A stretch of 64,000 nucleotides of DNA from Phycisphaeraceae bacterium (GCA_963674705.1 OY771506.1:4704001-4768000); one strand, 5' to 3'; counted from the first letter of the stretch, positions 1-57,219 are shown. Made by a program: numbers and translations. Notes: a model not told the origin generated them from the sequence alone.

Positions 1-1
1 C

Positions 2-304
2 AACGCCCATGCCGCGTTTGTGTGCTTCATCGAGGATACGGCCATTGTCCAAATGTTGGATGGACCATGTACGGATGGTATTAGCACCGGCTTCGATCGC
101 GGCATCGAGTTCATCAAAACCGGAGATCGGATGCACTTCGAACGGCTTACCGTCACGCAGGAGCATGTATTGACCGTTGTGCTGGACCACCTTGACCGGG
201 ATGGGCCCCTCTGCTTCCGCTTGTACTGAAGGTGCGAGAGCAAGCAAAGCGACGATGCAAATCACAATCAGGTCAATTCCACGATTCAAATATTTCAAAC
301 GCAT
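2..304 (-). CDS. Secreted glycoside hydrolase, GH2-like TIM barrel (5' part; runs off the window)
   Basis: Not in the ORF track; translated by hand: MRLKYLNRGIDLIVICIVALLALAPSVQAEAEGPIPVKVVQHNGQYMLLRDGKPF...AGANTIRTW...LDEAHKRGMGV. Signal peptide; GGAGG RBS at 306-310. Confidence 0.7.
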   Translation of the reverse strand, partial: MRLKYLNRGIDLIVICIVALLALAPSVQAEAEGPIPVKVVQHNGQYMLLRDGKPFEVHPISGFDELDAAIEAGANTIRTWSIQHLDNGRILDEAHKRGMGV

Positions 305-338
305 ACCTCCAAATTCACACATCCTCTATACAGATGAT

Positions 339-1163
339 TTAATTCGAGCCTTCAACTTCACGATCTTTCGGCGACCAGAGTGTGTTGTATCGGCTGATGC
401 CTTGTGAGCGGTCAACCAACTCGTCATCGTTTGTTGTAGCGGCATGCCCATCGACATAAGCGAAGTTGATACTGCCACGTGCTTCGGTAGGTGTATCACC
501 TGAGGGACGGTGGCGTGAGTAATCCAATCTGCTTTCAGCGGCCGGACTGAACTGGATACCTAGTGAAGTACCCGGCTCTGGTCGATCGACGAAGTTTTCA
601 TAAGGTGTGAAATCACCATACGCCAACATCGGACGGGCATAAAGCAAACCGTCCGTTCGATAGATTGACCATGCCTCACCCAAAAGAAGTGTCTCGGAAG
701 ACTGGGGCACGCTTGCATCGAAGCGCTCTCCCGCGGTGGAAGGCACATAGGTTTCACGTATATCACCACTGGCGGCCCAGACATTCATGGCGTAAGACCG
801 CGCCGAATCTTCATCACTTGGGCAGGCAAGGATCGAACCGCCGAGGTTACCGGCATTCGTGTTTTCATTGGTAGGCAGATACGGCCCAAGGACTTCGATT
901 TCGTGCCACATGGGTTTATTGGTATCACCCATCGGGAACAGGTCTTTGTTGCTCGTGGCATAGCTGGCAAAAGCGACGCCCAACTGACGAATATTGCTCA
1001 GACATTGCATATTCTGCGCCGCCTTGCGTGCCGCACCAAGCGCCGGCAGCAGGATACCGACCAGCAGCGCGATGATACTGATCACGACCAACAGCTCGAT
1101 GAGCGTGAAGGCTCGTATCGCACCGGAAGTGTTTGCCGGCATGGTTGACTTTGTGCTTAACAT
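339..1163 (-). CDS. Prepilin-type N-terminal cleavage/methylation protein, DUF1559-like (H-X9-DG-CTERM type)
   Basis: [35 protein letters not shown]-terminal NFAYVDGHA. Confidence 0.9.
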
Positions 1164-1237
1164 GAGAACCTATCCTCCAATAGTAGCGTGCGTGTAACAG
1201 GTTGGCTTCATGCCGGTCCCGTCTTTATGCAAATCGT

Positions 1238-2905
1238 TTACTTTCCGACCAATGCGGCGGAGACGCCTTGTTTATGACTCTTTTTCTCGACCCACTGGCT
1301 TATCCCGGTGGTTATTGGGCCATCGGACCACGTGAGTATCTGGTGGTCAGTGAGTAGTTGTTGCTTCAGGTTTTCGTATGGCAGGTCCTGTACGGCCAGG
1401 TTCTGATCGATCGACAGGCTTGCAGCAGTAGCAGCGGACTGGCCGAGGATCATGCCGACCGGCTCCATGCGGATCGAGCCGAACGCGATGTGTGATGCGG
1501 ACACACACCACGGCACGAGCAGGTTTTCACATTCACCCTTGCGAGGCACGATCGCGCGGTAGCTGACGCGATACGGTGCGTTGGGCTCAACCTCGACATT
1601 ACCTTCGTTGACCAAACGCCCATCGACCACGAGGCGACGGCAGTTGTGTGAATCCATGGTGTACGCAGCAAGCCCGATCGGGTCTTCGACCACTTGCTGG
1701 TGTCGGCAGTGATGTTCAGTCATGACAATGTCGCCGACCATGCGTCGGGCTTCACGGATGTAGAGTTGATTGGGCCAACCGCCGGTATCCATGAATTCAT
1801 CTTTCGGCAAACCCCACTTGGCGACTTCCTCGCGGATCTCAGCGGGGACACGCTCATCGTTGACCAAGAAGTAATACATCCCCTGGTTGTAGGTAACGTG
1901 GTCCTGGAAAATGCGTTCGCGCGTGTGGTAATCACCTTCTGGCCAATCGTAATTTGCGCCGATGTGGTCGGATGAGAATCCGCCGAAGTTATTGGTATCG
2001 GTTTTCTGATTGGGGATCGGCAGTGTCAGGAAAAGGGCGTCCCAGATGCCGGCGTTGATGTAACGAAGTAAGAGTTCATATCGCTGCGGGTCATAGTTAT
2101 TCGGCTTGGGGAAAGGCAGTTTGTTGTTGTCGACGTTGGTCAGACACAGGCGGAAGTTGTACGCCTGGATGGACGTATCTGCTTGTCCGTTGTGTCCGAG
2201 AGGCAAGTCCTGTACGCCAGGAAGGAGGCCGGAGGATGGATCGCCTGGCACGACGTAGGGATCGACCCATGCCTTGAAGTTATGTCCCGGGTGGCCGAAG
2301 TGAATACCGTTTAGCGTTTCGTGGTATTGGCGGTTGGCTTCGCGGCCGACGGTGTAGGTAACACCGGCCTTGGCCATCAGGTCACCTTCGTATGTCGCAT
2401 CGATGAACATGGAGGCGGCGTAAGTTGAGCCGCATTCCATTGTGATACTCTTGATGCGATTATCTTCGGTTGCGACATCGGCAAGCCGCTTTTCGTAATG
2501 CACCTCGATGTCGGCATCGTCGAGCATGCTTTTAAAGATGGCTTGGGCAACGTGCGGCTCGAAGCGCCAGGACAGTGGTTTGTTGTAATGCCTTCCGATG
2601 CGTTTGTAGAATTCCCGAGAGATACCGCCGATAGCAAGTTCGTGACCGACGTCTGTCGCACCAAGACCCGCGGTGGTCATCCCACCGAGATGACTGTTGA
2701 AAACGAGCAGGACGACGCGCTTACCCATCCGGCTTGCCTGGATGGCGGCGGCGATACCGGCGGGGGTTCCGCCGTAGACGACGATATCACATCGGACATT
2801 TCTCGGTTCTCCGGGCGTCGCAAGCGGGTAGTAATAGTGCAAGCCGGGCACCTTGGCGGCTTGCTCCGGCTGTGAACCATTACGATTTTTCGGTGAACTG
2901 ATCAT
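1238..2905 (-). CDS. FAD-dependent oxidoreductase (FAD_oxidored family)
   Basis: DIVVYGGTPAGIAAAIQA, FIDATYEGDL, YIREARRM, SASHIAFGSIRMEP; start 2905 (ATG) or 2911 (TTG). Confidence 0.85.
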   Translation of the reverse strand: MISSPKNRNGSQPEQAAKVPGLHYYYPLATPGEPRNVRCDIVVYGGTPAGIAAAIQASRMGKRVVLLVFNSHLGGMTTAGLGATDVGHELAIGGISREFYKRIGRHYNKPLSWRFEPHVAQAIFKSMLDDADIEVHYEKRLADVATEDNRIKSITMECGSTYAASMFIDATYEGDLMAKAGVTYTVGREANRQYHETLNGIHFGHPGHNFKAWVDPYVVPGDPSSGLLPGVQDLPLGHNGQADTSIQAYNFRLCLTNVDNNKLPFPKPNNYDPQRYELLLRYINAGIWDALFLTLPIPNQKTDTNNFGGFSSDHIGANYDWPEGDYHTRERIFQDHVTYNQGMYYFLVNDERVPAEIREEVAKWGLPKDEFMDTGGWPNQLYIREARRMVGDIVMTEHHCRHQQVVEDPIGLAAYTMDSHNCRRLVVDGRLVNEGNVEVEPNAPYRVSYRAIVPRKGECENLLVPWCVSASHIAFGSIRMEPVGMILGQSAATAASLSIDQNLAVQDLPYENLKQQLLTDHQILTWSDGPITTGISQWVEKKSHKQGVSAALVGK

Positions 2906-3096
2906 CGTCAAAATTCATATCCTACATGTGTCACTTGACTTATGACAGACAGGAGCAAATGTCGTCTCCTATCCGCCCACACTAATTATGCCGATCGAGG
3001 CTTGCTTCTCAATGCGCAATAGCGTATTATTTTTATAATATCACGTATTTCTATGGAGACGCTTTTCAGGTATTGCGTTCGGGACAGGAGCGGTCT

Positions 3097-4272
3097 GTGA
3101 GTGAATCTAAACTGCCAAGAGTGGCGGTCATGCTGGACCTGGCCAGCGCGTACGGCCGATCCGAGGCGATGGGTGTGGCGCAGTACGTCGCGTCGCATCA
3201 GCCTTGGCGCGTCGAGTTATCCGTAGCTACACAGTCGACACGCAGCATTCGGCAGATTGATGCCGATGGTTTGATCATGCCTGTAACGACCGAGGCGCAG
3301 CGCGATGAGGTACTGAAACTGGGTATCCCGACAGTGAGCATCGCGGGCAATCTGACGGATACAGGTTTTCCCGTGGTGACTGCTGACCATGAAAAGATCG
3401 GCAGGATGGCGGCGGAGTTTTTCCTGAAGCGCGGATTTGAGTTCATGGCGTTTTGTGGGATCAGCGATCGTTACTATTCACCTCGTCGTGGTAACGGATT
3501 CACTCAGACATTACAGAAGGCGGGTATTCGATGTTATATGCACGAGAAGAGTGCACCGACGGCGCGCCGCAACCGTACGAGTGACCAAAAGCAAAGGCTG
3601 GCGCAATGGCTGGTGAGTTTGCCTAAGCCGTGTGGATTATTTGTTTGCGATGATCTGCAAGCTGTTGAGTTGCTGGACGCGGCAAGGCAGGTGGGCGTAC
3701 GTGTGCCGGATGAAGTGGCGGTGTTGTCGGTAGATAACGATGAACTGTCGTGCAATCTTTCCGATCCGCCGTTATCGAGTATTGACCACGGCACACAACA
3801 GATCGGATATCAGGCGGGGAACCTGCTGGATCGAATGCTGCGTGGCGAATCGGTATCACTGAAACCGGTTGTTGTGCCGCCGACGACGATCGTATTGCGG
3901 CGGAGCACGGATGTGTATCCACAAAGCGACCCGCATATCAATCGTGCGTTGGCATTTATGCAAGACAACTTGACACGCAGGATACAGGTTGAAGATATCG
4001 TGGAAGCATCGGGTGTGTCTCGGCGGTTGCTGGAAAATGCGTTCCGGAAAGTCATCCATCGGTCTATTCTGGATGAGTACCATCGTTTACAGATCGAGAT
4101 GATCATGCACCTGTTACGTGACACAACAATCCCGTTGAAGCAGATAGCCATGCAGATGGGATTCAATAATGTCTACTACTTCAACGCCTTTTTTAAGCGA
4201 ACAGTGGGTATCCCGCCGGGTAAGTACAGGAAAACGGCACAGATGCCCAGCCAATCAATGTTGATGCAGTAA
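3097..4272 (+). CDS. XylR-type regulator (periplasmic-binding-like sensor + AraC HTH)
   Basis: LPKPCGLFVCDD, VPDEVAVLSVDND, PPLSSID, C-terminal AraC HTH (GF...YFNAFFKR..G.PP..YR); GTG start after CAGGAG. Confidence 0.88.
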   Translation: MSESKLPRVAVMLDLASAYGRSEAMGVAQYVASHQPWRVELSVATQSTRSIRQIDADGLIMPVTTEAQRDEVLKLGIPTVSIAGNLTDTGFPVVTADHEKIGRMAAEFFLKRGFEFMAFCGISDRYYSPRRGNGFTQTLQKAGIRCYMHEKSAPTARRNRTSDQKQRLAQWLVSLPKPCGLFVCDDLQAVELLDAARQVGVRVPDEVAVLSVDNDELSCNLSDPPLSSIDHGTQQIGYQAGNLLDRMLRGESVSLKPVVVPPTTIVLRRSTDVYPQSDPHINRALAFMQDNLTRRIQVEDIVEASGVSRRLLENAFRKVIHRSILDEYHRLQIEMIMHLLRDTTIPLKQIAMQMGFNNVYYFNAFFKRTVGIPPGKYRKTAQMPSQSMLMQ

Positions 4273-4289
4273 TGAGCGACAGCCCTCTA

Positions 4290-4405
4290 TTACCTTCTGA
4301 TTTTTAATCCCGTCACAGCGCCGAATGTAAACACCAGCAGCGATGCGGGTTCGGGTATTGCTACGATGTCGGAAGATGGCGCTGCGGTGTTCAAGTTATT
4401 GAGAT
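4290..4405 (-). pseudogene. Orphan 3' remnant of a PEP-CTERM gene
   Basis: Hand translation LNNLNTAAPSSDIVAIPEPASLLVFTFGAVTGLKIRR*; no start or upstream body. Confidence 0.75.
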
Positions 4406-4432
4406 CCCTGTAAAGCAAGCTTTTAAACTGCA

Positions 4433-5488
4433 CTACGCGGAACGCTTGGTAATCTGCTCGGGGTATCGGGCAAGGCTCACAGCCGTGTCATAACTGATAT
4501 CTCCCTGTTGATACAGCTTCAGCAATGAACGATCCATGGTGGTCATATCGTGCTTGCCGCCGGCCTGCATCTCCGAGTAGAGCCTGTATGACTCATTATC
4601 GCGTACTTGTTTGCGGACACCCGGGGTGCCGACGAGGACCTCACAAGCGATGATCCTGCCGTCACCGTTAGCACGCGGTATGAGTTGTTGAGAGATCACC
4701 CCTTGCAGCACGTTGGCAAGCATAAAGCGGACCTCGTCCTGCTGGCCCTCAGGGAAAGCCGAACTAATTCGCTGGATGACTTCTGCCGCGCCCGGGGTGT
4801 GTAGTGTGGCGATGACGAGGTGGCCCGTCTCCGCAGCCATCAATGCTGTATAAATTGTTTCGGGATCGCGCATTTCACCAATACAGATTACATCGGGGTC
4901 CTGACGCAAAACATGTTTAAGAGCGTTGTTGAAGTCAAGCACATCGGTGAGTACTTCCTGTTGGATAACGATAGATCGCTTGTACTTGTGCGTGAACTCG
5001 ACCGGGTCCTCGATAGTTACGATCTTTCTGCGGTATTCGACATTGATCAAGTCGACCATGTAGTGGAACGTGGTGGTTTTACCGGTGCCCGTCGGGCCAG
5101 TGATAAGAACCAGGCCGTTGGGCTTACGTGCCAGGTCATCGACTATTTTCGGCAAGGCTAGATCTTCCCGGCTGCGGATATGTTGTTCGCTTAACCGGAT
5201 AGACATTTCCGGGATGCCGTTGCGGAAGTACAACGCAACACGTGCGCGGTCTTCATCTTTGCCGAACCGTGTCGAGAAGCACAGCGCCAGGTCGCGGTCG
5301 AATTTGGACCGTTGCTCATCATTGAGTAGTTCGTAGGCCAGCGTACGAGCCGTTTCGGGCGTGATGCTGTCGCCCTTGGCGGTCACGATCTGCCCGTCTT
5401 TGCGGAAGATGGGTGGCACCCCAACAACGACATGCAGATCGCTGGCGTGGTGGTGTCTTGCGGTCTGCAACAAGGAAAGAAGTTTCAT
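4433..5488 (-). CDS. pilT: PilT/PilU-family type IV pilus retraction ATPase
   Basis: ASDLHV, Walker A GPTGTGKTTT, TIEDPVE, LRQDPDVICIGEMRD, AAETGHLVIATLHT; ATG 5488 overlaps the upstream TGA (ATGA). Confidence 0.92.
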   Translation of the reverse strand: MKLLSLLQTARHHHASDLHVVVGVPPIFRKDGQIVTAKGDSITPETARTLAYELLNDEQRSKFDRDLALCFSTRFGKDEDRARVALYFRNGIPEMSIRLSEQHIRSREDLALPKIVDDLARKPNGLVLITGPTGTGKTTTFHYMVDLINVEYRRKIVTIEDPVEFTHKYKRSIVIQQEVLTDVLDFNNALKHVLRQDPDVICIGEMRDPETIYTALMAAETGHLVIATLHTPGAAEVIQRISSAFPEGQQDEVRFMLANVLQGVISQQLIPRANGDGRIIACEVLVGTPGVRKQVRDNESYRLYSEMQAGGKHDMTTMDRSLLKLYQQGDISYDTAVSLARYPEQITKRSA

Positions 5489-6276
5489 CGGAGCCTCCAT
5501 AAACAAAGGGGAGACAGCAACCGTGCCAACAGATGGACACGGCCGGTCGAGTTCAACGCTTCAATCGCCAGACTAAACTCCGGCGACAGTTCCAGCGAAC
5601 GACGGTAACTTTCACGCGCGGCGCCCCACCACCCCAGGCCCTGCTGGCATCGACCCAGCATGTACCAGTTGTATGCGTGCTCCGGGCGTTTGCTTAATGC
5701 CAGGTGAGTTTGCTTCATAGCCGAGGCGAACCTGCCATAGAACTCGAGAATCTCTGAGATCAATATGTAATCAAACCAGTCGAATTCTGGCTCACACGCA
5801 GCCTTTGCGAAGCACTCTTCATAATGCGACTTCCTGCACGCAAGCAAAACCTCTCCGCGCGATTCCCAGCGCCATGCGGATTGGCCCGGAGCACCCACTG
5901 CCATATCCGAATAGGCCATCGCACTCTTGCGGTCGCCTAACCGTGCCGATGCCTGGGCTCGACAAGCAAGCAAGTCGCCGTGATATGGGAAGACCTCCAA
6001 GGCCTTGTCAGCCCATAGTAGCGCCTCCTCGTATTCAGCTAACTGCACCAGCATCTGGACCTGGCCGCACCAGGCAGCAACCCGGCCCCGGTCCTCGCCA
6101 AGGGTGCGCGTGTAATACCGTAGCGCCCGCTCGCAGTCGCCCCACGACCTTGCCTCAGTAGCGATCGCGAAGCAACGGTCTGCACCGTGTTCTTCCAGAT
6201 CAAGCATCGGCCTCGTTTCAGACTGGCTCTCCTGTGGCTTTCGTAGTTCTAAGCGTCCGAATCGTCCTTCCATCAT
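5485..6276 (-). CDS. TPR-repeat protein
   Basis: Repeated helical TPR-like units (ALRYYTRTL, WADKALEVFP, YRRSLELSPE); N-terminal RFGRLEL. Confidence 0.8.
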   Translation of the reverse strand: MMEGRFGRLELRKPQESQSETRPMLDLEEHGADRCFAIATEARSWGDCERALRYYTRTLGEDRGRVAAWCGQVQMLVQLAEYEEALLWADKALEVFPYHGDLLACRAQASARLGDRKSAMAYSDMAVGAPGQSAWRWESRGEVLLACRKSHYEECFAKAACEPEFDWFDYILISEILEFYGRFASAMKQTHLALSKRPEHAYNWYMLGRCQQGLGWWGAARESYRRSLELSPEFSLAIEALNSTGRVHLLARLLSPLCLWRLR

Positions 6277-6278
6277 TT

Positions 6279-7277
6279 TTACTCCACTGCCCCGAATCGC
6301 GAGAATGGACGCAACCGCCACAACGCAAGCCCGGATATGTCTGAAGCATTAACCTGGCAGTCACGATGCAGCATTTGTCTGATCAATTGCCCGACGTTAC
6401 CGCCGTGTGCCTCCCAATTCAGGTTCGAGGGCAGGATCAGATAATGTCCTTGATTAACTGTGAATTCAAGATCCGGAAAATGTCGGACACCGTTCAACGG
6501 CATCGCCTCGGCAGGTAGAGGCTGACCGTTAACTAAAATCCGTCCCGATACGATAGAAACCGATTCCCCCTCAAGAGCGACGATACGATCCACCCCGTAG
6601 CCATGCTCTAGCTCATAAATCACTAAATCACCACGCTCGTACCGATCGGGGCGAAGCCACCTGCCGGTATACACGATAGTATCACCGTTCTGTACGATGC
6701 CAGTATCTGCAACGTTGTTGATCTGCAACGCACCGCAAAGACCCGTGGTGGTCCACGAGAGCGCCAGGTAAATCGTCAGGTTCAGTACGATCACAAACCA
6801 GACACCCACCATCAACCGACCCCGCCACGACAAACGCGTCATACCAGGCCTGATCGCTAGCGCAATCGCCGTGGCATGCACCAAGATCGCCAAGGCCCGC
6901 CACCAGCTTCCCGCTACCGAGCCATACGTCAAGAAACTCAGCGCCATCAACACACACCAGCCTGCCAATATGGACCAGCCCAGGATTCTTTGTCCCAGTA
7001 CCAACTGGCCCAGCCCCGGGACCAATGACATCACGAGCGAACCCAGAGGTGCACCGCCTGAGATTCGTGGCAGCCTTAGCCTCTGGATTATGCCTGAAAA
7101 ATTGAAGCCGATGCGATGCGTCGACCGGATCACACCGAGGCGGGTACGACGCAGCGCGACCGGGCCCGTCGCACGGGGCGGCTCTATATCGATCTGCTTC
7201 AGGTTCAGGATCGCGTTGCAGCGCGCACAACGCTCCAGCCCCGGCATGTTCTCAAAGTCACATGAACTGCACTTCAT
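6279..7277 (-). CDS. Zn-ribbon + multi-TM + S26 signal-peptidase-like domain, catalytic residues apparently absent
   Basis: CxxC-x9-CxxC N-terminus; SLVPGLGQ TM motif; GDTIV..RGDLVIY..VDRIVALEGESVSIVSGRILVNG matches the S26 fold with KR replaced by DR and no SMxPT. Confidence 0.7.
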   Translation of the reverse strand: MKCSSCDFENMPGLERCARCNAILNLKQIDIEPPRATGPVALRRTRLGVIRSTHRIGFNFSGIIQRLRLPRISGGAPLGSLVMSLVPGLGQLVLGQRILGWSILAGWCVLMALSFLTYGSVAGSWWRALAILVHATAIALAIRPGMTRLSWRGRLMVGVWFVIVLNLTIYLALSWTTTGLCGALQINNVADTGIVQNGDTIVYTGRWLRPDRYERGDLVIYELEHGYGVDRIVALEGESVSIVSGRILVNGQPLPAEAMPLNGVRHFPDLEFTVNQGHYLILPSNLNWEAHGGNVGQLIRQMLHRDCQVNASDISGLALWRLRPFSRFGAVE

Positions 7278-7292
7278 GCTACAACCCTGTGG

Positions 7293-7520
7293 CTAATGAT
7301 CGGTTTGGTCACGGACTCGACCGTGCTGCATACCTTGGATATGCACCGACCCGTCCTGGCTGTAGTACTCGGCCGTCTTCTGACGCGATTCTTCGTGACC
7401 AACAATGTCTCTGATAAGGTCGGCTAATTCGAAACACTGCTGCCCCTGCGAACCGACAACCTCAACACGGACCTGGCCATCATTCGTGATCTCAATTTTG
7501 TATTCAGGTATCTTCGTCAA
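7293..7520 (-). CDS. DUF2997-like small protein
   Basis: IEITNDGQVRVEVVGSQGQQC...G......TAEYY pattern; lies next to DUF1257-like and AAA genes; TTG start at 7520 preferred. Confidence 0.75.
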   Translation of the reverse strand: MTKIPEYKIEITNDGQVRVEVVGSQGQQCFELADLIRDIVGHEESRQKTAEYYSQDGSVHIQGMQHGRVRDQTDH

Positions 7521-7536
7521 CTCATTAGCCCCTTGT

Positions 7537-8004
7537 TTATATGGATGAGCCACCGAAACGGATGCGCATTTGGATCGATGCATCCTCTGTCATATGCTCT
7601 TCGACGACCTCGAAACGGCGCTGCTTCAGCTCCGTAACCAGTTTGTGATAGGTGAACTGCTGGATAAGCCTGCCGGAAACCTCATCGCCGAGGGCTTTCA
7701 TCTCGGCCTTGCTCAGGTTGTCCGAGGTCACACATACCGTGCATCGGCCGCGTTCGTCACGGCCGATCCGCACGGTCGCGTCGTCGCGTTGAATTGTGAT
7801 CGATTGCCCGTGAGACACGCCTTCGGTGATGACTTCGCTGTCAGCCAACTCGGTCTCGACGGTGTTACCCGTTTTCTTTTGCTCAACTTCATGGCCGCCG
7901 GTGGCGACGCTGAAGCCCAGCGATGCGGCTACCCCGCCGACCGCGGTCGCGATCATCGGCCAGGATCCAATAACAATCGGTGTCAGAACACAGACAGCAC
8001 TCAT
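7537..8004 (-). CDS. DUF1257 (Ycf35)-like protein
   Basis: C-terminal LIQQFTYHKLVTELKQRRFEVVEEHMTEDASIQMRI; AGGAG RBS; operon position. Confidence 0.7.
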   Translation of the reverse strand: MSAVCVLTPIVIGSWPMIATAVGGVAASLGFSVATGGHEVEQKKTGNTVETELADSEVITEGVSHGQSITIQRDDATVRIGRDERGRCTVCVTSDNLSKAEMKALGDEVSGRLIQQFTYHKLVTELKQRRFEVVEEHMTEDASIQMRIRFGGSSI

Positions 8005-8027
8005 GACAAATCTCCTTGATCGGGTGC

Positions 8028-9620
8028 TCAGAACTCCAGTTTGCGCCTCGGCTCGTGTGCGGTCTTGACGTCGCGCAGCGATGCGAAACGCGCTCTTCCT
8101 TCCGCCCAGGCACGAAGCTTCGCAACGTTCTCACTCATAGTCCGCGACAATGGCACGGTCTCCTTAAGGCTTTTCAACAAAGTGTTGGTGTCAATATCGT
8201 GATCCACATAAAACGCCTCATAAAGAGCACTGATCACGGCCTGCTCCAGTTCTGCTCCGCTGAACCCGTCGCTGGCGTCGACCAGCATGTCCAAATCAAA
8301 ATCAGTTGCATCACGGCCGCGGCGATTGATGTGGATCTCCAGGATCCTTCGTCGCTCTTCCATATTGGGTAGGTCAACAAAGAAAATCTCATCGAGCCTT
8401 CCTTTGCGCAATAGTTCAGGCGGTAAGCGGCTGATGTCGTTGGCTGTAGCGATCACGAACACCGGCTTGGTCTTTTCGCTAAGCCATGTGAGGAACGTAC
8501 TCATGACACGTGAGGTCGTCCCGCCATCGCTACCGCCTGAATCTTGAGCACCGGAAAATGCCTTGTCTATCTCGTCGGCCCACAGGACGACAGGGGCAAT
8601 GCTCTCCGCCACAGCAATCGCCCGACGGATGTTCTCTTCGGACGATCCAACAAGGCTCGAAAACATCCGACCCATATCAAATCGCAGCAGCGGCATCCGC
8701 CAAAGATTACTGACCGCTTTAGCACATAAGCTTTTGCCACATCCCTGCACACCAACGAGTAAGGCGCCGCGCGGTGCCGGGAGTCCAAACTGCCTGGCAC
8801 GATCGGTGAAAGCAATCGATCGCTTCTCCAACCAGTCCTTGAGTGTCTCAAGCCCGCCGACTTCACCAAGATTTGTATCAGTATCACAATACTCCAGCAG
8901 GCCGTTCTTGCGTATGATCTGCCGCTTTTCCGAGAAAACGATAGAGATGTCGTCTGCATCCAGCTTGCCATCGTTCACGATCGTCTTGGCAAAAACATTC
9001 TCTGCTTCTTGCAAGGTGAGGCCCATCGCTGCCTGAACGAGTTTCTCACGGCTGCTGTCGTCGATGTTCAACTCGAGTTCGGAGTTCTCCGATACGTCCC
9101 GTGCGATCCGTTCGAGAAGGATCGTAAAATCATCCGGTCCGGGCAGCGGGTAATCCAGAACGGTGATGTCTTTCTCCAGGTCCGGCGCAATATCAATAAC
9201 GGGAGCAGTAATAATCAGCGTCTTGTAGCTGTCCGTCAGTGCATTGGACACTTCACGCAACTTACGCACGACCGCAGCGTTATTGGCTGCCCCCGATGTG
9301 AATCGATGCAGGTCCTTGAAAAGGTAGATGGCAGGCTGCTTATTCTCAATGACGGTGTCTAGCGCCTCCACCGGGTCCGCAACTTGCCCCTTGCGCGCAG
9401 ACCTCTTTGCACCTCGCTCTTGCAAGCCGGAGGTCAGTGTCCATGTGAACAGGTCTTTGCTCCGCGATTGGGCGATGATGGAAACGTGATCTTCAACACG
9501 CTGCTCCTCCCACGTCACCACGTAGATGATCGGGTATCGGGCCCGGATCAATGTTTCAAGTTCGTCGGGGGGAGGTTGTTTGGTTGCCGCCACACTTACT
9601 TGTTCAGTATGAGGTTTCAT
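8028..9620 (-). CDS. AAA+ ATPase, Ycf46-like
   Basis: LIRARYPIIYVVTWEEQR, FKDLH, GVQGCGKS, WADEIDK, LPPELLRKGRLDEIFFVDLP, PLSRTMSE. Confidence 0.92.
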   Translation of the reverse strand: MKPHTEQVSVAATKQPPPDELETLIRARYPIIYVVTWEEQRVEDHVSIIAQSRSKDLFTWTLTSGLQERGAKRSARKGQVADPVEALDTVIENKQPAIYLFKDLHRFTSGAANNAAVVRKLREVSNALTDSYKTLIITAPVIDIAPDLEKDITVLDYPLPGPDDFTILLERIARDVSENSELELNIDDSSREKLVQAAMGLTLQEAENVFAKTIVNDGKLDADDISIVFSEKRQIIRKNGLLEYCDTDTNLGEVGGLETLKDWLEKRSIAFTDRARQFGLPAPRGALLVGVQGCGKSLCAKAVSNLWRMPLLRFDMGRMFSSLVGSSEENIRRAIAVAESIAPVVLWADEIDKAFSGAQDSGGSDGGTTSRVMSTFLTWLSEKTKPVFVIATANDISRLPPELLRKGRLDEIFFVDLPNMEERRRILEIHINRRGRDATDFDLDMLVDASDGFSGAELEQAVISALYEAFYVDHDIDTNTLLKSLKETVPLSRTMSENVAKLRAWAEGRARFASLRDVKTAHEPRRKLEF

Positions 9621-9817
9621 TGTGTTTTCTCCGGCAAGTGATCCGCAGCTTGCAACCGTTGGCGTAGAACTTCATCGTTGGGACAGAGCTGGCAAATGAT
9701 CGGCAGCAGGTCAGGCGTCAGATCATGCAGAAATACTCGACCATCTGAAGCCAGCCTGATCGTGACCGACTGCCCGTCGTCCACATTATTCCGATCGCGA
9801 CTATTCACTGTACGCAT
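9617..9817 (-). CDS. Small hypothetical protein
   Basis: Overlaps the radical SAM stop and the AAA start (ATGA); GGAG before ATG 9817; VTIRLASDGRVFLHDL. Confidence 0.6.
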   Translation of the reverse strand: MRTVNSRDRNNVDDGQSVTIRLASDGRVFLHDLTPDLLPIICQLCPNDEVLRQRLQAADHLPEKTQ

Positions 9818-10673
9818 GAACGGCTCCATGTCTGGTATGCAAACCCAACGAACAAACCCAGGATGTTGCCTCTTCCAACTCATCGATGTTGCAGGTACGC
9901 CCCATCTGAGGGTCCGCTACTGCACGCCACGCAGGTAGGTACCCCGGCATCAGCTCAAACACCGCCTCTGGAAGGTTCGCCGCCACCCATTCCGCCACCG
10001 GTTTAAAACAGCAATCCAGATGGCCCGGCATCAACAGGTGCCGGATGAACAAGTCACCACGTTCTGCGACGATCCGTAAGTTCCGTGTGAGCACATGCGT
10101 GTAACGGTCGACGCCGGCAATACGCTTCGCGCAATCATCCCTACCGAACTTGAAGTCCACGAGGTATATCCGTACCACCGGCTCAAGCAGGTCCAGCGTT
10201 TGAGGTGTGATGTAAAGATTGGTCTTCAGTGCGATCGGCAGTTGTCGGTCCGACGCAGCGGCTAGCTCAAGGATCGTGTGGGGATGCAGTGCCGGTTCGC
10301 CCCCGATAAGCGTGATCGTCTTCGCGCCGTACTTCACAGCATCGGTGATCTCTTGTGATAAAGCTCGGGGATTGATAAGCTCGCCACGGCATGGATCGAA
10401 ACATTGCGGCGCCTGAATACAGAACCGACACCGCATATTGCATCCGCTTAGGTAGACCATGTAAGCGGGCAGCAGTTCGACTTCTTCGGCGAGACTCAGA
10501 TGACGTTTGTAGGTGTAACTGTCCGCACCGAGTCCACACGGCCCAACCTCGCCGCGCAGTCTGTTTGCCCCGCAACGCAACTCGCAGACTTCACAAGACG
10601 CCAGGGCCGACTTTGCACGTTCGACCAGAACGCACAAGTGGCGTCGATCCGTTTGTATGCGCGTCGTAGGCAA
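9801..10673 (-). CDS. Radical SAM protein, PflX-like
   Basis: N-terminal CEVCELRC..NR, CNMRCRFC (CxxxCxxC), GGEP, DFKFG, IRHLLMPGH. Confidence 0.88.
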   Translation of the reverse strand: MPTTRIQTDRRHLCVLVERAKSALASCEVCELRCGANRLRGEVGPCGLGADSYTYKRHLSLAEEVELLPAYMVYLSGCNMRCRFCIQAPQCFDPCRGELINPRALSQEITDAVKYGAKTITLIGGEPALHPHTILELAAASDRQLPIALKTNLYITPQTLDLLEPVVRIYLVDFKFGRDDCAKRIAGVDRYTHVLTRNLRIVAERGDLFIRHLLMPGHLDCCFKPVAEWVAANLPEAVFELMPGYLPAWRAVADPQMGRTCNIDELEEATSWVCSLGLHTRHGAVHAYSE

Positions 10674-10717
10674 GACTGGCTCCGTGTGATCCTTAAAGAA
10701 CCGTCTACTACCTATAT

Positions 10718-10743
10718 GACGTAGACGTCACGGGGCCGTTTCA
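10718..10743 (-). promoter_or_regulatory. ECF sigma-type promoter for the radical SAM-AAA-PilT operon
   Basis: Minus strand TGAAAC-N16-CGTC, about 45 bp upstream of the TTG start. Confidence 0.6.
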
Positions 10744-55992: not shown

Positions 55993-57219
55993 TGACCCCC
56001 TCGGGTTCTTTGGTCCAGTTGCTATGAGAGAATCGGTGAGTGTGTTGTTGCTTGCTGAGCCGCAGGGCGGGGCGCAGCCCCGACCGGAGAGTCAGCAAGC
56101 GGTGCGGCCGGGAACGCCCCGGCTGCGGGTTCGTTTAATCTCGCGGCATACGCCGCAGGGGGCTCCCAGTTCAACGACGTGTGCGGTCGGCGGTGGTTGT
56201 AATCCAGACGCCACTCGTCCAATACGTACCTCACCTCGGTAAGGCTCAGGAACAGTTCGCCGTTAAGCAACTCGTCACGCAGCTTGCCGTTGAACGATTC
56301 CACGTAGCTGTTCTCCCAGGGGCTGGCCTTCTGGATATACAGGGTACGTACTGACGCCTTACCCAGCCACTTCTGGACCTCCTTGGCCACGAACTCAGGA
56401 CCGTCATCCGAGCGGATGTGCTCGGACCGCAAACAGGTACTGCAGCGTCAGGATTACATCTCGGGAGGTGAATGAACGTCCCGGTTCGGTTGCCAGGCAA
56501 CTCATCGATCACCACCAACAGCTTCAGCTGTTGCCCGGCAAACGCCTTCGTTTACGCTGCTTCTTAGACACTTGCATGCCCTCCTTCTTCCACAGCCGAT
56601 GCACTTGACCAAAGCCTACTGACCAGCCCACTTTTGCCAGTTCTGGATGCACCCGTTCGCAGCCGAACCGTGGACGGACGTCGATGACCTCACGCATCGC
56701 CTCGATCAAGGCCTGGTCTTTCTCCGGCAGCTTGAGCCGGTAACGCTGCGTACTCCGTGGCTGGTCCAACGCCTTGCAAGCCCGACGCTCACTGACCTTG
56801 CCATGCCCCAAACGACTACGTACCTTTTGAACCGTACGACGCCGCCGTTCGGGGTCGATCAGTTTGGGCGGGCCGCCTCCTTCAGGATCAGCATGTCCAA
56901 CGCTTGGTCCGCCACCAACTTCTTCAGCCGCGCGTTCTCACGCTCCAGTTCCTTCATCTGCTTGGCCATCAGCGGAGCGTCCAGTGGGGCGCCATCTCGC
57001 CGTACTTGGTTTGCCAGCGGTAGTACGTCTGTTCGCTGATGCCCAGCTGTCGGCAAACCTCCGGCACCTTCAGCCCCTTGCCCAACTCAATATCCGCCTA
57101 GCGGAGCTTGGCCACGATCTGCTCGGTACTGTGTCGCGTCTTCATCGAGGAATCCTTTCCGGATCGAGGCCGGATGGATTCTCTCATATTCACTGGATCA
57201 GGTTCTCAGGAGGGGGTCA
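55993..57219 (-). mobile_element. IS3-family element, degenerate
   Basis: Imperfect TIRs TGACCCCCTC...TCCAGT...TATGAGAGAATC; orfA from 57145 with TAG at 57098-57100; broken orfB (SDDGPEF, SPWENSYVESFNGKLRDE). Confidence 0.92.

Follow-up and report, generated by a model that had tools for sequence, protein, structure and literature searches.

An eight-gene operon in Planctomycetota and Verrucomicrobiota that joins a Ycf46-like AAA+ ATPase, DUF1257 and DUF2997 to a PilT ATPase of its own clade

Introduction

Proteins of the Ycf46, Ycf35 (DUF1257) and DUF2997 families are present in cyanobacteria and plastids as well as on plasmids and in phages; the accessible parts of the literature describe phenotypes rather than mechanism; indeed, the sections available to us of the cited papers contain no molecular mechanism for Ycf46. 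Cyanobacterial ycf46 operons are described there as stress-induced (PMC7496141, PMC13683863). Here, we analyse a stretch of 64,000 nucleotides (the window, in whose coordinates all positions are given) from a Phycisphaeraceae bacterium (GCA_963674705.1 OY771506.1:4704001-4768000), where an operon at positions 4433-10743 combines these three families with a radical SAM enzyme, a small open reading frame (ORF), a membrane protein related to signal peptidases of family S26, a TPR protein and a PilT-family ATPase. This conserved extension of the Ycf46/DUF1257/DUF2997 gene set is apparently undescribed: no account of the operon, or of the short terminal peptides reported below, was found in the literature searched, which was mostly open-access, accessible in part, and may list the genes in supplements.

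We tentatively propose that the operon encodes a membrane-tethered, peptide-addressed AAA+ remodelling machine with a dedicated PilT, acting on membrane complexes under envelope stress. The evidence for this proposal lies in a stable gene order, a PilT clade of its own, a pattern of retained and lost catalytic residues and the co-occurrence of short motifs, each of which is presented below together with the explanations that compete with it.

Gene organisation and distribution of the operon

The window belongs to a single-contig genome of 5.5 Mb, and its closest loci carry the labels Phycisphaeraceae or Phycisphaerales. All eight predicted ORFs are present on the minus strand, in the order radical SAM enzyme, small ORF, AAA+ ATPase, DUF1257 variant, DUF2997, S26-like protein, TPR protein and PilT. 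The first two genes overlap by 17 bp, ATGA couplings join the small ORF to the AAA gene (9617-9620) and the TPR gene to pilT (5485-5488), and the remaining junctions are gaps of 23 bp (AAA/DUF1257), 16 bp (DUF1257/DUF2997), 15 bp (DUF2997/S26-like) and 2 bp (S26-like/TPR). Genes, strand and junctions agree with an earlier, sequence-only reading of this locus, which had described eight co-oriented genes with gaps of at most 23 bp and both couplings. Each of the seven genes other than pilT is single-copy in the genome. In each of the eight genes, differences from the closest relative fall mainly on third codon positions, and synonymous changes outnumber non-synonymous ones in seven, the small ORF showing the reverse (5 versus 7).

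A GTDB scan with the AAA protein yielded 373 confirmed relatives; the 80 best loci were fetched, a set biased to close kin. The full eight-gene order is intact in 58 of these 80 loci (Planctomycetota and Verrucomicrobiota), including one, L017, with frameshifted downstream genes; 12 are cut by contig ends, six are split, and four are reduced to genes for an extracytoplasmic function (ECF) sigma factor, AAA, TPR and PilT. In an even draw of 401 Planctomycetota genomes, a profile of the DUF1257 variant gave 24 matches, and 20 of the 23 outside this genome were fetched. Thirteen of the 14 strong matches sit in the order AAA-DUF1257-DUF2997-S26-TPR-PilT, the fourteenth lying at a contig end, and 13 of the 14 loci have a radical SAM gene upstream; the weak matches are all (6/6) canonical DUF1257 genes in bare AAA-DUF1257-DUF2997 trios. 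The phylum of a verrucomicrobial carrier yielded matches to the same profile in 7 of 301 genomes, with the extended order in all six that were fetched. The S26-like, TPR and PilT genes thus stay beside the AAA trio in other genomes, as had been supposed when the eight were read as one unit. The operon is old and its order stable, yet only a few percent of genomes carry it. Loci labelled Myxococcota, Acidobacteriota, Actinomycetota and Chloroflexota nest inside the verrucomicrobial clade; these labels may be wrong, and a third phylum was set aside.

The patchy occurrence of the operon, found in 3 of the 11 genomes of its own genus and in 24 of the 401 of the phylum draw, and the presence of relatives of its core on plasmids and phages would suit mobile cargo, perhaps a system for defence or conflict. 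PADLOC, however, returns only partial matches of a generic AAA or radical SAM kind (IetA, pVip and mad8) and leaves five of the eight proteins unmatched, we recognised no nuclease or toxin domain, the two phyla are largely separate in the AAA tree, and the G+C content of the operon matches that of the window, so that we consider such an origin very improbable.

Some loci show local rearrangements. A metagenome-assembled genome (MAG) of the same genus holds a frameshifted S26-TPR-PilT run in its operon contig (L097, G007:C18:15000-33000) and, at the start of another contig, an intact TPR-PilT pair of 91% identity (L152, G007:C8:1-3000), which represents either a decaying duplicate or an assembly error. 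The operon of L192 (G077:C75) has no radical SAM or small gene in the stretch fetched, an unrelated PilU-like gene upstream, and Tyr at pore-loop 1 of its AAA protein. One genome (G437) carries the operon in pieces (L233, L234 and L049) and, in addition, another DUF1257-DUF2997 pair, of the canonical kind; its AAA gene is followed by a radical SAM gene of more distant relationship. Finally, L058 (9549-9908) and about 14 similar verrucomicrobial loci have a small membrane-like gene (80-140 amino acids, aa) between AAA and DUF1257, whose product bears no terminal tag of the kind described below.

A PilT clade specific to the operon

The last gene (4433-5488, minus strand) encodes a PilT-family ATPase of 351 aa that scores 373.4 bits on TIGR01420 (PilT/PilU; cut-off 319.1). 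Residues R83, R98, T139, T140, D161, E205, R207 and H230, which cover Walker A, the Asp box, the Walker B Glu, the His box and both arginine fingers, are kept in 75/75 operon PilTs. In a tree of 139 sequences, all 75 fall into one clade, joined there by just one other sequence, which also has a TPR gene upstream, and the clade is supported at 100/99 in an IQ-TREE analysis of 44 sequences that included 22 of 59 comparators. These 59 PilT/PilU comparators, all of them in the FastTree tree, are mostly Phycisphaerae paralogues together with five plasmid-collection records; among them, the operon PilT does not group with pilus-locus PilTs. The phylogeny that the sequence-only reading had called for consequently places the operon PilTs in a clade of their own, apart from the 59 others. 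The clade is further marked by a change of QREV to QQEV (71 of 75, against R in 59/59 others) and of D to C at position 70. No literature source was found for a role of the QREV arginine.

That reading had also stressed that this PilT lacks pilus neighbours, which holds at the locus, where neither pilB nor pilC adjoins it. The orphan status says little alone, because two other PilT-family genes of the genome are equally orphan (three of five are without pilus neighbours, the operon pilT included) and eight PilC homologues could serve in trans. The description of the machine as self-contained gains no support, since PilC-family genes and other PilTs are present in 19/19 operon-bearing genomes tested, and the operon PilT could thus serve a pilus, or a secretion platform, in trans.

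These same counts of PilC homologues and orphan PilT genes fit an arrangement of two co-regulated, physically separate modules, namely a Ycf46 core and a TPR-PilT pair that would work as a stress-induced accessory retraction motor for ordinary type IV pili or secretion platforms. Consistent with such a motor, the catalytic residues are kept, the segment after the His box aligns gap-free to solved PilTs, and the motif R-x-x-[IV]-R-[ED] is kept in 68 of the 75 operon PilTs; the accessible text of PMC5424180 predicts that the pore-loop extension of PilT binds PilC. The AIRNLIRE motif of canonical pilus-locus PilTs reads GVRKQVRD in the window; a form near to AIRNLIRE is seen in 15 of the 75 operon sequences and in 10 of the 59 comparators. 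A physical separation accords poorly with the four reduced loci, where TPR and PilT adjoin the AAA gene and not pilus genes, with the motif that the TPR protein shares with a membrane protein from the other end of the operon, and with the fixed changes of the clade (R to Q, D to C). On balance, we doubt that the modules are separate, while according the idea more weight than the other competing explanations.

The AAA+ ATPase and its C-terminal tail

The gene at 8028-9620 (minus strand) encodes a tandem AAA+ ATPase of 530 aa of the Ycf46 type. Its N-terminal module is without a Walker A motif, which is present in only one of 80 members, while the C-terminal module is intact, with Walker A, Walker B and Arg-finger motifs in 80/80. 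The best PDB match is p97/Cdc48 (E about 1e-53). The phage family phrog_8638 matches the window protein over its full length (E 2e-153) and, among 14 controls, finds a match only in S. elongatus; the window protein is also 42-43% identical to cyanobacterial plasmid AAA proteins adjoining DUF1257/DUF2997, and its own neighbourhood contains DUF1257 and DUF2997, as in the Ycf46 family. By this indirect test via phrog_8638, it would belong to that family.

The protein terminates in RRKLEF (8031-8048), a predicted docking peptide. A C-terminal tail of the form basic-hydrophobic-E-hydrophobic is found in 93 of 109 AAA proteins, those of bare trios included, and the 16 tailless ones comprise four from reduced operons, 11 stand-alone proteins and one exception. 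DUF2997 was found in none of the 15 genomes of the reduced and stand-alone groups. A search of the four reduced-locus genomes found no DUF1257 variant, radical SAM or S26-like orthologue; PF06868 misses the DUF1257 variant (the control G004 was negative), so that the genome search with this model speaks for canonical DUF1257 only. By comparison, all six tailed AAA proteins with a split operon have DUF1257 elsewhere in the genome. Since the tail goes missing where DUF1257 and DUF2997 are missing, it likely binds these two proteins, a deduction drawn from few independent events. In the window genome, a scan for the tail gave three loose matches against 0-3 expected, and its strict form occurs only in the AAA protein itself.

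A second, stand-alone clade of Ycf46-like AAA proteins (L098-L108; 38-42% identity) is common in the order to which the window belongs. These proteins have no tail and mostly an aromatic pore residue, and no DUF2997 was found in their genomes.

A peptide shared by the TPR and rhomboid-like proteins

The TPR protein (263 aa; 5485-6276, minus strand) matches TPR families and begins with the tag RFGRLEL (6244-6264), which conforms to RFx[NRH]LE[FL], a motif found at the N-terminus of 64 of 66 TPR proteins. Verrucomicrobial operons contain an added rhomboid-like gene whose product ends in R-I-x-R-L-E-L or a close variant (15/15), and one more distant copy ends in GRFDNIELD. A profile built from the 15 rhomboid C-termini alone ranks RFGRLEL of the window TPR first among 4530 ORF ends of this genome and selects the N-terminus in 62 of 66 TPR proteins. 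A matrix from the AAA tails did not single out the TPR start; only the rhomboid-trained profile did so. Furthermore, four of the seven plasmid modules examined (Bacillota and Actinomycetota) contain neighbouring proteins whose C-terminal peptide is that of their AAA protein. The AAA tail and the TPR/rhomboid tag may be one signal or two.

The TPR tag is kept in all four reduced loci, and its persistence there points to the AAA protein or PilT as its receptor; the former is favoured because plasmid modules that have no PilT carry the tag as well.

This pattern invites a broader view, in which Ycf46-family ATPases would be the hub of a bacterial address-tag system, equivalent to Cdc48 with its cofactors but free of ubiquitin. 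The recruiting peptide would be R-hydrophobic-x-[RN]-hydrophobic-E-hydrophobic, at either chain end; DUF1257/DUF2997 would form the docking platform, into which the radical SAM enzyme would plug by a DUF2997-like hairpin; and in Planctomycetota and Verrucomicrobiota the hub would have captured PilT as a second membrane-protein extraction motor, outside pili. We offer this generalisation as a speculation, and hold it to be improbable as a whole.

The rhomboid-like genes of L056, L062, L063, L066, L067, L069, L072, L073, L076, L078, L083, L085 and L091-L093 are apparently without the catalytic Ser and His, while GASG and the His are retained in the copy of L227, as read from the alignment. A 112-aa ORF elsewhere in the genome (G000:C1:382280-382618) contains, near its start, the second-best match to the tag profile, which may be due to chance. 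On a Treponema plasmid (L239, NC_015386.1 59069-67565), the gene next to a tailed AAA gene and a short radical SAM gene bears the annotation 'phage baseplate assembly protein V'; the annotation of the 8.5 kb shown includes neither DUF1257 nor DUF2997.

The radical SAM enzyme and its small partner

The first gene (9801-10673, minus strand) encodes a radical SAM enzyme of 290 aa (PF04055, 62.5 bits; cut-off 29.5) that resembles the pyruvate formate lyase activating enzyme (PFL-AE); another four-Cys motif lies in its N-terminal part and GHxxCC in its C-terminal part. The GCxxxCxxC motif is present in 74/74 of these enzymes, and the N-terminal Cys motif and GHxxCC in 71/74. The JGI name is 'putative pyruvate formate lyase activating enzyme' and the best PDB match is PFL-AE (E 4e-5); we presume that the label 'PflX' is also appropriate. 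All NCBIfam models of glycyl-radical activases score far below their cut-offs (TIGR02493, 48 versus 232 bits; TIGR02494, 45 versus 174 bits), and the operon contains no glycyl-radical enzyme partner.

The adjacent small ORF (66 aa; 9617-9817, minus strand) is predicted to form a beta-hairpin and helix like those of DUF2997. It is present in 74 of the 80 loci and fused to the C-terminus of the radical SAM enzyme in five, and is likely a split docking domain of that enzyme. Aligned with hhalign, it matches the first hairpin of DUF2997 over 18 columns (P 69%, E 4e-5; shuffled controls P <0.4%). Similarly, in five plasmid modules the short radical SAM enzymes terminate in a segment resembling DUF2997 (P 59-71%, controls <1%), which matches both the small ORF and DUF2997. 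As two forms of the enzyme carry such an end, the segment is probably a docking piece.

It is conceivable that this enzyme is the centre of the system, and that the module serves to modify proteins, with the ATPases exposing or recycling the substrate; tagged clients or the invariant Cys in DUF2997 could, for instance, be the targets. The enzyme accompanies the core both in the operon of the Planctomycetes-Verrucomicrobia-Chlamydiae (PVC) group and, in a shorter form, in five of seven plasmid modules, each time with a DUF2997-like end; its closest solved relatives act on proteins (PFL-AE), and the DUF2997 Cys does not vary. It is, however, absent from the bare trios (6/6) and from the reduced loci, and the PVC tails are without the conserved Gly that a glycyl radical would need. 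We find this explanation unlikely, if somewhat less so than that of mobile cargo.

Predicted attachment to the membrane

The DUF1257 variant (155 aa; 7537-8004, minus strand) scores 17.6 bits on PF06868, below the cut-off of 22.2. Its nearest ESM Atlas clusters carry DUF1257 (0.94-0.96), and its own profile reaches canonical DUF1257 at E 1e-9 to 1e-5, which identifies it as a diverged relative. Its first 32 residues are hydrophobic and carry no charge in 59 of 60 variants, against 7-10 charges in the copies of the bare trios (6/6), and are predicted to act as a membrane anchor; three plasmid modules with tagged neighbours have a similar hydrophobic DUF1257 start. The structural model has a mean predicted local distance difference test (pLDDT) score of 69, with residues 1-18 unresolved. 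No longer, fused DUF1257 forms were found, which is weak evidence.

DUF2997 (75 aa; 7293-7520, minus strand) matches PF11211 with 45.4 bits (cut-off 24.1), and its Cys is invariant in 48/48. The closest relative starts this gene with an ATG, in place of which the window reads ACG (7515-7525); because of this ACG, translation likely starts at a TTG one codon earlier. Three contig sets, which are probably the source of this DNA itself, show no differences to the window sequence, the ACG included.

The third protein of this group (332 aa; 6279-7277, minus strand) combines an N-terminal zinc ribbon, at least three predicted transmembrane helices and a signal-peptidase-I-like domain (Peptidase_S26, PF10502; 28.4 bits, above the cut-off) without the Ser/Lys dyad. 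Hydropathy gives three transmembrane helices, and the zinc ribbon is present in 32/62. The site of the Ser is Ala190 (Ser in 0/45 rows) and that of the Lys is Asp230 (Lys in 0/63 rows), the Ser loop being deleted in many verrucomicrobial members. As the dyad is gone, the protein would not be an active signal peptidase I; both catalytic residues are lost, in agreement with the dead S26 peptidase first named at this locus. Finally, the last 18 aa of the TPR protein form a basic amphipathic segment, with a hydrophobic moment of 0.72, versus 0.56 when shuffled, and a net charge of +4.3 (n=63). Together with the hydrophobic DUF1257 start and the transmembrane segments of the S26-like protein, this amphipathic end argues for the suspected link to the envelope.

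A model of the proposed machine

The preferred reading, a Cdc48-like AAA+ ring which, when the envelope is under stress, would separate or rearrange membrane protein complexes together with a dedicated PilT, can be wired as follows. The AAA ring would dock by its R-K-L-E-F tail on a DUF1257/DUF2997 platform, itself held at the inner membrane by the hydrophobic start of DUF1257 and by the dead-peptidase protein. The radical SAM enzyme would join via its DUF2997-like small protein and might modify a component or client. The TPR protein would lie on the membrane through its amphipathic end and be recruited through its R-F-x-N-L-E-F tag, most likely by the AAA protein itself, because tag, AAA and PilT persist together when all else is lost; it would then couple PilT. 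As substrate, a PilC-type platform encoded elsewhere or the S26-like protein are the leading candidates.

Several observations weigh against this reading. All carriers tested possess PilC-family genes and further PilTs on which, or beside which, the operon PilT might serve. Pore-loop 1 of the AAA protein has Leu in 77 of 80 members and Phe in three, all of the latter from reduced loci; as this Leu sits where p97 D2 has its gripping Trp, the protein can be argued not to be a strong unfoldase; translocating AAA+ unfoldases of the p97 D2 and Vps4 type have an aromatic residue there. The association of tail and platform has its exceptions, with DUF1257 and DUF2997 present and the tail absent in L204, and with two cyanobacterial plasmid AAA proteins and one phage AAA protein being without a basic tail. 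Nor are the tailless cases numerous in origin: the reduced loci need two changes on the tree, a single origin being unrejected (approximately unbiased test, p 0.113), and are all four MAGs of unstated completeness, and the 11 stand-alone proteins make up one clade. The AAA tail agrees with the TPR/rhomboid motif in its last four positions only (rank 1746 of 4530), and a search of this genome revealed no further client with such a tail. The hairpin matches extend over 18-33 columns, and the turn that they cover is a common one. Searches by fold did not rise above background for the DUF1257 variant (PDB and viral sets) or DUF2997 (PDB), with best Z scores of 6.3 and 5.5, respectively.

Among the fold matches, which bear on a possible KA1-like fold of DUF1257 and a possible PilO/EpsL-like fold of DUF2997, the DUF1257 model was aligned to the beta-adaptin appendage (Z 6.3, root-mean-square deviation (rmsd) 3.1, 78 residues aligned), and one viral protein matched it at E 1.5e-4 with a TM-score of 0.38. 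The DUF2997 model (pLDDT 62) was aligned to PilO (Z 5.2, rmsd 2.8, 64 aligned); a TonB-C-like fold, which had been guessed for DUF2997, was absent among the 50 matches listed.

The sequence-only reading had envisaged a self-contained envelope-linked machine that might disassemble a DUF1257/DUF2997 filament. Its core came through both the synteny comparison and the PilT phylogeny, and its membrane link is made probable by the predicted features above; its self-containment and the filament gain no support, the motif evidence fitting DUF1257/DUF2997 better as a docking platform than as a substrate.

Regulation

A candidate ECF-type promoter, TGAAAC-N16-CGTC, lies upstream of the operon (10718-10743, minus strand), with the same spacing and position in both same-genus relatives. 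It has ten matches in the genome, of which two are intergenic, the operon site being one of them, and it is absent in 31 other Planctomycetota loci; a genus-specific promoter is thus plausible. A sigma-70 scan found no promoter, and 33 Planctomycetota loci yielded no promoter motif in common. In Verrucomicrobiota, an ECF sigma gene and a small downstream gene head the operon, and GTGAC-N15-17-[TG]GTC precedes the sigma gene in 29 of the 33 loci that have one (with the mis-cut region of L061 scored as a miss) and in none of the loci without it. The window operon is without a sigma gene, and this motif has no match upstream of it. Stress control would accordingly be an extrapolation from the ECF sigma genes of relatives and from cyanobacterial ycf46, rather than from data on this organism.

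The sigma genes also lend themselves to a different explanation, in which the operon is a relay for sensing envelope stress and switching the response: the dead peptidase and the dead rhomboid would bind unfolded or uncleaved peptides, and the AAA protein would be a nucleotide-dependent scaffold controlling the ECF sigma factor or another regulator. The pore-loop Leu, the lead position of the sigma and small genes in Verrucomicrobiota, the precedent of dead signal peptidase I folds that can work by peptide binding (SipA, PMC4049620, in its accessible part) and the interaction with KaiC reported for Ycf46 in the available text of PMC13683863 are all compatible with it. This relay would have to do without a sigma gene in the window operon, it leaves the intact, clade-specific PilT and the radical SAM enzyme unexplained, and the aromatic pore residue in three of four reduced loci suggests a pore in use; we judge it unlikely, though a shade less so than a system centred on the radical SAM enzyme.

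Flanking sequence

The flanking genes are ordinary. The neighbour of pilT is a convergent gene for a XylR-like regulator, and a divergent DUF1549/DUF1553-DUF1501 cluster lies upstream of the operon. The DNA begins to resemble that of the closest relative exactly at the end of pilT; the genes on the other side of this point (window 1-4428), for the XylR-like regulator, a FAD oxidoreductase and a protein with a prepilin motif, are not shared with the relative there. Two ORFs at 56022-56811 resemble what we take to be an IS3-family transposase pair.

Comparison with known systems

The terminal-peptide wiring, that is the six-residue AAA tail and the seven-residue tag at the TPR start and rhomboid end, is the most testable result of this analysis, and a natural fusion names the protein with which the radical SAM enzyme pairs. 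A clade of PilTs with a possible role outside pili would, if real, surprise specialists of type IV filaments; a tag system combined with a non-pilus PilT would be categorically new, if true.

The operon PilT has the family score and catalytic residues of the type IVa retraction ATPases PilT/PilU; in contrast to these, it falls in a separate clade with QQEV, and its genomic partners are TPR and AAA genes, not pilB and pilC. The radical SAM enzyme resembles the PFL-AE/PflX-like group in its radical SAM core with GGEP and in its database name, and differs in its extra N-terminal Cys cluster, in falling below the cut-offs of the activase models and in having no glycyl-radical enzyme in the operon.

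The S26-like protein shares with SipA/LepA, a pilus assembly factor of Streptococcus pyogenes, a signal peptidase I fold without the Ser/Lys dyad, and SipA is its best single-sequence PDB match (E 5e-7). A special kinship was rejected, as the family profile favours the ordinary SpsB (2.6e-10) over SipA (1.2e-8), and SipA serves sortase pili. The accessible part of the SipA study (PMC4049620) nonetheless offers a precedent for a non-catalytic, peptide-binding role.

Among solved structures, the AAA protein is closest to p97/Cdc48, with two AAA modules in tandem. Its first module is without Walker A, and it has neither the N-domain nor the ubiquitin system of p97; at pore-loop 1 its active module has Leu, like p97 D1, and not the Trp of D2. 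Within p97 systems, partners are recruited by short motifs.

The closest described system is that of cyanobacterial and plastid ycf46 (slr0374, Synpcc7942_0417) with ycf35/DUF1257 and DUF2997. By the indirect test given above it would have the same AAA family, and it has the same two small partner families; the accessible parts of three papers describe stress-linked regulation (PMC7496141, PMC13683863, PMC4284462). Relative to this system, the start of DUF1257 is hydrophobic in the window, and the operon further contains a radical SAM enzyme and its small partner, a dead peptidase, a TPR protein and PilT.

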